From a virus (taxonomy: Duplodnaviria; Heunggongvirae; Uroviricota; Caudoviricetes), in IMG/VR virus record IMGVR_UViG_2617270975_000013: a DNA stretch of 10,360 bases; one strand, given 5' to 3'. Each line of letters starts with the position of its first letter. The first letter of the stretch is position 1. This document shows positions 1 through 3,000 of the stretch, piece by piece. A program made the position numbers.

Positions 1-3000
1 CCCAGCGTTTCCGCCATTTCTTCCTGAAGTGCGCTGATTCGCTCCTGTGCTTCCTGTATCTGCCGTTCGGTTTTTGCACGAAGTTTTTCTGAGCTTTTAC
101 CGAACTGCATACGTTGCAGTTTCGCAACCAGCGCCTTCAGCCGGTTGATTTCGGAAGCATAAGCCGCCACCCGCTGTGAGAGCAGGCGGTTGTATTCAGC
201 CATCTGGCGGATGGTGTCCTGTTGCGTCTGCAACAGTGCCCGCAGGCGGGCGTTCTCATGAGCAAGTGAGGTGTCCATATCCTCACTTTACAACGGGTTA
301 TATGCGGATTCCAGCGCGTTCCGTTCGTTTCGGGTGCTTCCAGTTGATACCTTCAAGAAGCATGGATAACTGAGCCGGAGTAAGGTGCACCTTGCCGTCA
401 CGGGTGACTGGCCAGACGAAGCGGCCCCGCTCCAGGCGTTTGGTGAAGAGGCACAGTCCGTCACTGTCAGCCCACAACACTTTTATCTGGTCACCCCGGC
501 GTCCGCGGAAGATGAACAGGTGTCCGGAGAACGGGTCATCCTTCAGGACGTTCTGAACTTTTGATGCCAGGCCGTTAAAGCCATTTCGCATATCGGTGAT
601 ACCTGCAACCAGCCAGATACGCGAACCTGCAGGGAGAGATATCATCAGTGGCTGCTCCCTTTTATTTCGCGGATAAGTGTCTGTAATAACGCCGGCGTCA
701 GTTTACCTTTAAGCCTGAGAGTTCCGGCCGGCAGAACCAGCTCACAACACAGACTGTCGGACGGTGTATTTATCTGCTCTGGTTCCTGTGCGGGGGCCGG
801 GATTTTATTATCCGGCTCCGGCGTTAACGTCACGGGAAGCAGTGCCGGCATATTTTTTCCGGAAGGCAGCAGGCCACCTTTCCGGTATTGATGGCGCCAG
901 TTGAAGAGCAGGTTATCGTTGATTCCGTTTTCCCGGGCGATCTGCGCCACACAGGCTCCGGGCTGCAGTGACTGCTCCACTAAGGCGATTTTAAACTCAT
1001 AAGGGAAGTTGGGCCGCCGGGGACGTTTTTTTACCACGGGGGCTTCGGATATAACGGTGCTTTCAGGACGTACGACTGGTACCGTGGAAAATTGTCCGTA
1101 AAGGCAGGCATCAAGTTCCTGCTCCGACATGCCTGCGGGCAAAGGCCACGAAAGGCCAGCTCTCCGAAAGCGCACGAACATACTACAAACTGTTGATTTT
1201 GGTACACCCAGGCGACGCCCGGCCACAACCCGGGGTAAATGTTCTTCAAAGTGAAGACGTAAAGCTTCAGTGATCCAGGTCCGGTGTTTCATACGATAGT
1301 GTCCATTAAAAATGATGGACATTATTTTTGTAGAGCCGGAGGAAACAGACCAGACGGTTTAAATGAGCCGGTTACATTCCTCCCTCCTCATAACACCGTC
1401 GGACAACGCAAATCGTAAATCAGCACGGACACAGAAAACGGCAGTTCCCCCTGCACGAGGTCTTCCCGCTCAGCAAGATCCGGATTCCGGTACAGCATCC
1501 CGGTCAGTCGCATGGCAGCCCCCTTCATCCGGGTTAATGCCTCGCCCGGGATCAGCTCACCGTCCTCACGAATCACCTTATCCCGGCTGCCCTGAATGTA
1601 GGCCAGCAGCACGGCGGTAGCCTGACGAACCTTGTCCATCAGCATGTCATCATCCGCGTCATAGTCGACACGCAGATGTGCCTTGATCTCTTCCAGTGTC
1701 AGTAATGCCGTCATTTTCCGCCTCCAGCATCCCGTCCCCGTTTGGCAGCCAGCGTCCAGCCAGATGCATGCGCATCCCCCGGTTTATCGGCGGTCATACT
1801 GTTGCAGTGCCACAGCGAGCCCCCCCACGTCACCGTATCGCCGGGGTGGTAGGTTTCACCGGCTCTGAACACTCCGCGGTAGAGCATCACCGGCAGGGAA
1901 AATGTTTTTTCCGTACACTGGCCACTGCTCTGCCGGATCACCACAGAGAACAACCGCTCACCCGTCATACTGACGTCAATATCCGCCACCCCGTCAACCA
2001 GGCATTCCCATCCCCGCATCCCGTGCGTTTTTTCATACGCCCGCCAGAGTCCTCCAAGGTGTGTGGCATACGTGCCCCGGGGAAAGGATTTTTGATCGTC
2101 AATGGCGGGGAGCACTTCCAGTGCCGTGGCATCACGCCCGTCCTGCGGAGCCGGAAGGGCATTCACCGCCTCCAGAACCGCCTGCTTCAGTACTTCCGGA
2201 TCGTAATCACGACCATCACGCGGAGCAGGGATATGGCTTACGGCCTCTTTCACCATCTGCTCAAGCATCGGACGCACATCATCGGGGGTGATACTTTTGC
2301 CGTCCGCCGGTACCGGAATATTCGCAACCGCATCATTCACCGCCTGCTGCAGTACATCCGGATCATAATCACGACCGTCACGCGGAGCAGGGATATGGCT
2401 TACAGCCTCTTTCACCATCTGCTCAAGCATCGGACGCACATCATCGGGGGTGATACTTTTGCCGTCCGCCGGTACCGGAATATTCGCAACCGCATCATTC
2501 ACCGCCTGCTGCAGTACATCCGGATCATAATCACGACCGTCACGCGGAGCAGGGATATGGCTTACAGCCTCTTTCACCATCTGCTCAAGCATCGGACGCA
2601 CATCATCGGGGGTGATACTTTTGCCGTCCGCCGGTACCGGAATATTCGCAACCGCATCATTCACCGCCTGCTGCAGTACATCCGGATCATAATCACGACC
2701 GTCACGCGGAGCAGGGATATGGCTTACAGCCTCTTTCACCATCTGCTCAAGCATCGGACGCACATCATCGGGGGTGATACTTTTGCCGTCCGCCGGTACC
2801 GGAATATTCGCAACCGCATCATTCACCGCCTGCTGCAGTACATCCGGATCATAATCACGACCATCACGCGGTACCGGAATGGTCCCCACAGCGTCATCCA
2901 CCATCGCCTGCAGAACCGGATGTACCTCATCCACCGTCACATGCTTCTGTAATACCGCCGACAGGGAAGCCAGTTTCTCTTCAAACGCTTGTGCCTGCGC

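Follow-up and report, generated by a model that had tools for sequence, protein, structure and literature searches.

The DNA analysed here, called the window throughout, is IMG/VR virus record IMGVR_UViG_2617270975_000013 and comprises the whole of draft contig JNQZ01000083.1 (GCA_000704425.1, 10,360 bp). It carries the packaging and head genes of a prophage followed, in the direction of late transcription, by one end of an insertion sequence (IS) of the IS66 family, ISCro1. The long phage open reading frames (ORFs) and the IS genes found in a scan of the window all lie on the minus strand (Table 1), in line with a preliminary description of this DNA, which had placed tnpA, tnpB and tnpC on the strand of the phage late genes. 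Judged by its genes, the host element is a long-tailed lambdoid prophage of Escherichia coli with a head module of the type found in Stx-converting phages. This module is 95–97% identical to those of many Stx1a- and Stx2a-converting phages, and 1120 of the 5426 complete E. coli genomes contain at least 80% of it. The left end of the window is an assembly break within a repeat, inside ISCro1, and represents no biological terminus.

The IS segment of the window contains the left portion, proximal to the left terminal inverted repeat (IRL), of an element that measures 2699 bp in its complete copies at loci L001 (E. coli CFSAN027343) and L047. This segment differs by 0–2 bases from copies in complete E. 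coli genomes, whose RefSeq (PGAP) name is "IS66-like element ISCro1 family"; the assignment to ISCro1 was made with these PGAP-named copies as a proxy for the ISfinder reference. It is identical to positions 2814–4188 of L047. The TnpB_IS66 match of the second IS gene scores 136 bits and covers 100 of 101 profile positions, and the stop codon of tnpA overlaps the start of tnpB with base 645 common to both. The complete TnpC of L047 is 523 residues long and carries LZ_Tnp_IS66, zf-IS66, DDE_Tnp_IS66 (E=4.5e-103) and DDE_Tnp_IS66_C domains. ISCro1, first named in Citrobacter rodentium ICC168 and widespread in E. coli, is a known element with the same 225-residue tnpA and 115-residue tnpB products, tnpC, GTAA repeats and 8-bp duplications, and only the insertion site described here is new. 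ISCro1 is reported to have expanded to 24 copies in C. rodentium (PMC3072379), and a copy upstream of afaA in ST131 is reported to lower afaA transcription (PMC8764528); the length given for the latter copy is 2,824 bp, as opposed to 2699 bp for the copies measured here.

The terminal repeats of ISCro1 are imperfect and start with GTAA, with IRL (GTAACCGGCTC...) and the right terminal inverted repeat (IRR, GTAAGCGACTC...) being alike at 18 of 26 positions. Target duplications of 8 bp (CCTGAAAC, AGTCGTAC and GTTCATCC) adjoin exactly these ends in three other copies (L001, L003 and L004). Because the duplications of these copies abut the same terminus, the sequence that ends at position 1375 of the window is almost certainly the end of ISCro1. 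The IS66-family assignment and the boundary at 1375 given in the preliminary description are thus upheld by the near-identity to ISCro1, by the TnpA, TnpB and TnpC domains, by the terminal repeats and by the duplications of other copies. A boundary to the right of 1375 was considered, as BLAST matches ran 8–24 bp beyond this position, and was rejected: in five copies inspected, the extensions reflect similarity of the flanks due to chance or target preference, and the element always ends in ...GGTTAC.

The phage gene nearest to the IS encodes the head–tail connector. This gene is complete, and its product matches that of the closest IS-free relative at 100% identity; the relative, the prophage of strain Z1323HEC0108 (L007), has the same gene order as the window and is 99.4% identical to it. 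The connector stop codon (1388–1390) lies exactly 12 bp (1376–1387) before the IS, so that the spacing of about 12 bp and the intact connector gene proposed earlier both stand. In IS-free relatives, the gap between the connector and head-closure genes is 10 bases long, and the empty site reads, in the direction of transcription, TGA GGAGGGAGGA ATG GCA ATA TCT.... The junction in the window reads TGA GGAGGGAGGA AT/GTAACCGG..., where the slash marks the IS terminus and the IS begins with GTAACC. A comparison with IS-free homologous prophages, which the preliminary description had suggested, therefore shows the head-closure start codon to be the insertion point. The octamer that adjoins the IS, GGAGGAAT, spans the nearer of two Shine-Dalgarno motifs and the first two bases of this start codon. 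The empty site is present in L001, L007 and 25 of the 27 IMG/VR contigs that share this connector end. A minimal ATG-TAA ORF is created at the junction; it lies behind two GGAGG motifs and 54 nt upstream of tnpA, and might affect the translation of read-through transcripts that enter the IS.

In L007, the connector gene is followed by genes for head closure, an HK97-gp10-like protein, gp17 tail completion, the major tail protein, the G/T chaperones, the tape measure, minor tail proteins, J, Lom and the tail fibre. Since IS-free relatives continue with these genes, the IS indeed stands between the genes for head and packaging and those for head completion and the tail, as had been presumed. The order connector, head closure, gp10-like and tail completion is found with PF05135 in the window and with PF05521, PF04883 and PF11367 next in L113 (described below), L007 and L001.

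The other side of the insertion was found by a gapped pattern scan of IMG/VR, in which a single contig, L113 (IMGVR_UViG_2617270975_000012), carries the exact predicted partner junction (CGAGTCGCTTACGGAGGAATGGCAATATC; right-end flank GGAGGAATGGCAATATC). L113 contains the last 1717 bp of ISCro1 and reads ...CGAGTCGCTTAC/GGAGGAAT/GGCAATATCTGCAGG..., with GGCAATATC after the octamer, in an orientation that agrees with that of the window. The preliminary description had proposed to locate the second IS end and the 8-bp duplication; this contig has a right end of ISCro1 followed by a further copy of the octamer, and so supplies a candidate for both. Past the IS, L113 carries intact genes for head closure (PF05521), the gp10-like protein (PF04883), gp17 (PF11367), the major tail protein and tail proteins G and T. 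It thus comes close to the uninterrupted run of tail genes beyond the IS that the preliminary description had named as evidence against its own view; six genes are intact, but another copy of ISCro1, in inverted orientation (4383–6146; junction AAATTCACAGTAAGCGACTCG), interrupts the tape-measure gene 47 nt beyond its ATG. The segment from head closure to T, 2.7 kb long, is bracketed by the inverted ISCro1 copies.

Neither the window junction nor the predicted partner junction was found in the 5426 complete E. coli genomes, the GTDB species representatives or the JGI metagenomes, and the tape-measure::ISCro1 junction of L113 was likewise absent from the 5426 complete genomes. As both sides of the insertion are missing from so many genomes, their exact complementarity is unlikely to be a coincidence, and a shared origin is the most economical explanation. 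The occurrence of GGAGGAAT on both sides of the IS, once in the window and once in L113, points to a simple insertion of ISCro1 with an 8-bp target duplication, and the comparison of these sequences makes this the probable course of events. ISCro1 would have transposed into the late operon using the octamer GGAGGAAT, in the orientation of the late genes, to give the structure connector – GGAGGAAT – (IRL tnpA tnpB tnpC IRR) – GGAGGAAT – G GCA... (head closure), and L113 would represent the same insertion event as the window.

Several points weigh against this reading. The window stops 1375 bp into the IS, and the right end of the element in this genome lies outside it. L113 comes from an IMG isolate (taxon 2617270975) that may differ from the strain of GCA_000704425.1, in which case the two contigs would belong to different genomes. 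The genome contains several ISCro1 copies, and relatives have rearranged copies (L047, and L113 with its second, inverted copy 2.7 kb away); the two halves of the prophage may no longer be adjacent.

These copies bring up the alternative that an inversion or deletion between ISCro1 elements, or an inversion-type intramolecular transposition, parted the head module from the other prophage genes and left a split, truly defective prophage. The two inverted copies in L113 offer a substrate on which inversion could act, the draft contig that makes up the window breaks off within the IS, and in L047 the left end of ISCro1 adjoins the head-closure gene while its right end adjoins an unrelated IS3/IS110 island. 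However, the target duplication is clean across the window and L113, L047 belongs to an allele with the IS in reverse orientation and may be a mis-join through the repeat, and the window's own genome gives no direct sign of rearrangement. A rearranged structure is accordingly improbable in our view.

A deletion adjacent to the IS is less probable still. Here, a downstream ISCro1 in the same orientation would have attacked a nearby target with its left end, deleting the head-closure, gp10-like and gp17 genes and producing no duplication. E. coli CFSAN027343 and 99_0849 (H1 and H2) do carry ISCro1 in the same orientation and in the same segment of the late operon, but within gp17, which is truncated. 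The H1 copy lies only 1.1 kb downstream and is flanked by the duplication CCTGAAAC, the target it shares with H2, and the window aligns to the H1 locus (L001) as two pieces with 1122 bp missing. A deletion would not, however, yield a partner junction in which GGAGGAAT is duplicated and the head-closure gene is intact, and the H1 and H2 prophages are only 95–98% identical to the window, compared to 99.4% for the IS-free prophage L007. The derivation of the window from a gp17::ISCro1 arrangement of the H1 type was dropped once the partner junction in L113 had been found, and gp17::ISCro1 of CFSAN027343 and 99_0849 is an independent event.

An assembly artefact, in which phage and IS sequence were wrongly fused at a repeat, might be suspected because the window is a short-read draft contig with its end in a multi-copy IS and the junction is missing from the 5426 complete genomes and two other collections. 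It is scarcely credible: the junction coincides exactly with the true IS terminus, where phage and IS have no more than one ambiguous base (G) in common, 1375 bp of perfect IS sequence follow, and the reciprocal junction with the expected 8-bp duplication occurs in an independent contig.

In addition to the simple insertion of ISCro1 on GGAGGAAT, related sequences carry ISCro1 in the opposite orientation 9 bp further downstream. In L107 (13068–13229) and L094 (8259–8383), the head module, which shares 99.92% identity with that of the window, ends in ...GGAGGAATGGCAATATC/GTAAGCGACTCG, the latter being the right end of ISCro1. In L047 (1490–4250), the left end of a complete ISCro1 adjoins GCAATATCTGCAGG..., which is followed by tail genes. 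Taken together, L107, L094 and L047 describe a duplication of GCAATATC and a head-closure gene without a start codon. Over the 2.7 kb that follow the IS, L047 and L113 are 100% identical, the next best match being 99.4% identical; along with the 99.92% identity of the head modules, this places both alleles in one prophage lineage. The left-end junction of L047 was not found in the 5426 complete E. coli genomes, in which no other insertion at this site was found either, and 25 further IMG/VR contigs have an empty site. The right-end flank of L047 (1–1489) is an unrelated IS3/IS110 remnant island that is present without ISCro1 in 62 complete genomes and displays no target duplication, a pattern suggestive of recombination among IS copies or of a mis-join across the repeat.

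The forward allele (window and L113, GGAGGAAT) and the reverse allele (L107, L094 and L047, GCAATATC) may have arisen by two independent hits, from a local hotspot or by local re-insertion. We regard it as unlikely that the pair reflects a true "flip" of an IS66-family element by local re-insertion, or a sharply defined structural hotspot. A flip could pass through a short-lived intermediate with two IS copies inserted head to head, which excision between the target duplications would then resolve.

The left-end flanks of 83 distinct ISCro1 insertions (L003–L088 and the window) show a weak palindromic preference, approximately GnTTAAnC, across the 8-bp duplication, with target positions 1, 3, 4, 6 and 8 each deviating from the background (p<0.001). 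An independent ISCro1 in E. coli FORC 064 (L006, 3061–3069) sits on the identical octamer GGAGGAAT, in the spacer between the Shine-Dalgarno sequence and the ATG of a prophage gene for a SASA/NanS-type esterase and 1 nt before this ATG (empty site in L007, 28136–28150). The shared octamer prompted the idea that ISCro1 targets Shine-Dalgarno sequences as a rule, which was discarded, as the 83 flanks show no such motif.

The preliminary description considered the insertion likely to be polar on the downstream late genes, with a defective prophage as the consequence, or else a mark of a degraded remnant. The second suggestion finds no support in the head module, where all eight phage ORFs are full length and the identity to the IS-free prophage L007 is 99.4%. 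A polar and hence disabling effect is no more than possible, and the orientation of the IS, the lack of a predicted terminator in its body, the restored ATG and the six intact downstream genes of L113 speak for a milder outcome. A terminator pattern scan found no sense-strand terminator-like site within the IS body; the sole minus-strand match inside the IS is at the right terminal repeat, where its T-rich tail extends into the flank of that particular copy. Late transcription of lambdoid phages is antiterminated by Q, and a Q-type antitermination gene is annotated upstream of the lysis and late genes in L007. With the IS co-oriented, its body free of terminator-like sites and Q-dependent antitermination at work, transcriptional polarity should be limited.

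At the level of translation, the duplication would give the head-closure gene back its ATG together with the nearer GGAGG (in an IRR-GGAGGAATG context). On induction, Q-modified late transcription would read through the co-oriented IS, so that the downstream genes would still be transcribed, but translation of the head-closure gene would be weakened by the loss of the well-spaced GGAGG and of translational coupling to the connector gene. As for transcription, the terminator scan was a simple pattern search, with Rho-dependent termination outside its scope. As for translation, the restored GGAGG would be only 1 nt from the start codon, and the motif with better spacing, 5 nt upstream, remains next to the connector gene. 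With the nearer GGAGG so close, the better one left behind and coupling lost, reduced rather than abolished expression of the head-closure gene is expected. The chances that transcription reads through and head-closure expression is weakened without being abolished appear roughly balanced. We infer that the insertion by itself is a modest lesion and not a knockout. A fully benign reading is countered by the better-spaced GGAGG left behind and by L113, in which the tape-measure gene is cut by the second ISCro1.

Apart from the connector, the phage genes of the window (assigned with Pfam and PHROGs, Table 1) have several features of their own. The prohead protease and the major capsid protein form a single fusion ORF with the portal gene downstream, an order unlike that of HK97. 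The 461-residue ORF shares an ATGA overlap with the portal stop codon, and its tandem repeats (2177–2871) amount to 4.3 copies of a 162-bp (54-residue) unit with 98% identity, whereas relatives have one copy fewer. The RefSeq annotation fuses this ORF and the portal gene into one "frameshifted" portal gene, and PHROG 2271 (859 residues, "portal protein") spans both. At the far end of the window (9500–10360), the G+C content falls from about 55% to 38–42%; this region contains a DUF3950/YlcI-YnfO gene on the plus strand, reaches the contig end and shows patchy identity to L001, while L007 aligns up to position 10360.

Table 1. Features of the window, from the IS end of the contig to the packaging genes (coordinates in bp; aa, amino-acid residues)
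Feature	Position	Strand	Basis or remark
ISCro1 (IS66 family), left (IRL-proximal) 1375 of 2699 bp	1–1375	-	contig stops inside the IS
tnpC (DDE transposase), first 92 codons, cut by contig end	1–278	-	identical to the N-terminus of L047 TnpC
tnpB, 115 aa, IS66 Orf2-like	298–645	-	TnpB_IS66 (PF05717), E=4.7e-40; identical to the L001 copy
tnpA, 225 aa, IS66-type accessory protein, helix-turn-helix	645–1322	-	Pfam HTH_Tnp_1, E=9e-15; identical to L001 TnpA
Left terminal inverted repeat (IRL), GTAACCGGCTCATTTAAACCGTCTGG	1350–1375	-	18/26 match to IRR GTAAGCGACTCGTCAGAACCGTATTG
Chimeric ATG-TAA start-stop: head-closure A,T + IS-terminus G-TAA	1372–1377	-	direct reading against the empty site
Target octamer GGAGGAAT (ATTCCTCC on the + strand), connector-side copy of the putative 8-bp duplication	1376–1383	-	
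Remainder of connector/head-closure spacer, GGAGGGAGGAAT, with both head-closure GGAGG Shine-Dalgarno motifs inside	1376–1387	-	
Head–tail connector (gp6-like adaptor), 108 aa, intact	1388–1714	-	Pfam Phage_connect_1 (PF05135); PHROG 40, head-tail adaptor Ad1
461-aa protein with 54-aa tandem repeats	1711–3096	-	
Portal	3093–4457	-	Pfam/PHROGs
73-aa ORF	4403–4624	-	
Prohead protease/major capsid fusion, 645 aa	4669–6606	-	Peptidase_S78 + Phage_capsid
Large terminase	6670–8331	-	Pfam/PHROGs
Small terminase	8328–8891	-	Pfam/PHROGs
HNH endonuclease	9181–9546	-	Pfam/PHROGs

The insertion of ISCro1 at the head-closure start codon is an ordinary one, in that the IS is known, the prophage type is very common and IS insertions in lambdoid prophages are well documented. 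Lambdoid prophages of enterohaemorrhagic and enteropathogenic E. coli likewise carry IS in the packaging and morphogenesis region, as in the "defective prophage pool" of O157 Sakai, where an IS lies within the small-terminase gene of Sp4 and the defects are complemented by co-resident prophages (PMC2669165). Unlike the Sakai cases, the insertion in the window breaks no ORF: the IS occupies the region of the Shine-Dalgarno sequence and the ATG, and the start codon would be restored by the duplication, which would make it a regulatory lesion and not a knockout.

If L113 belongs to the same lineage, the prophage would be tail-defective through the insertion in the tape-measure gene, which would be the more damaging lesion. 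Co-resident lambdoid prophages can make good such defects, as shown for O157 Sakai (PMC2669165). The lambdoid prophage of this strain has at least one copy of ISCro1 in its morphogenesis operon, and probably two, and may depend on co-resident prophages to form particles. An IS can sit in a phage late operon without breaking a gene, and a draft contig whose end falls in a repeat is no safe basis for calling a prophage defective. For target choice in the IS66 family, the pair of alleles in opposite orientations at a distance of 9 bp provides a minor lead, and a flip or a hotspot, if true, would be a small new fact about a poorly understood transposition mechanism.

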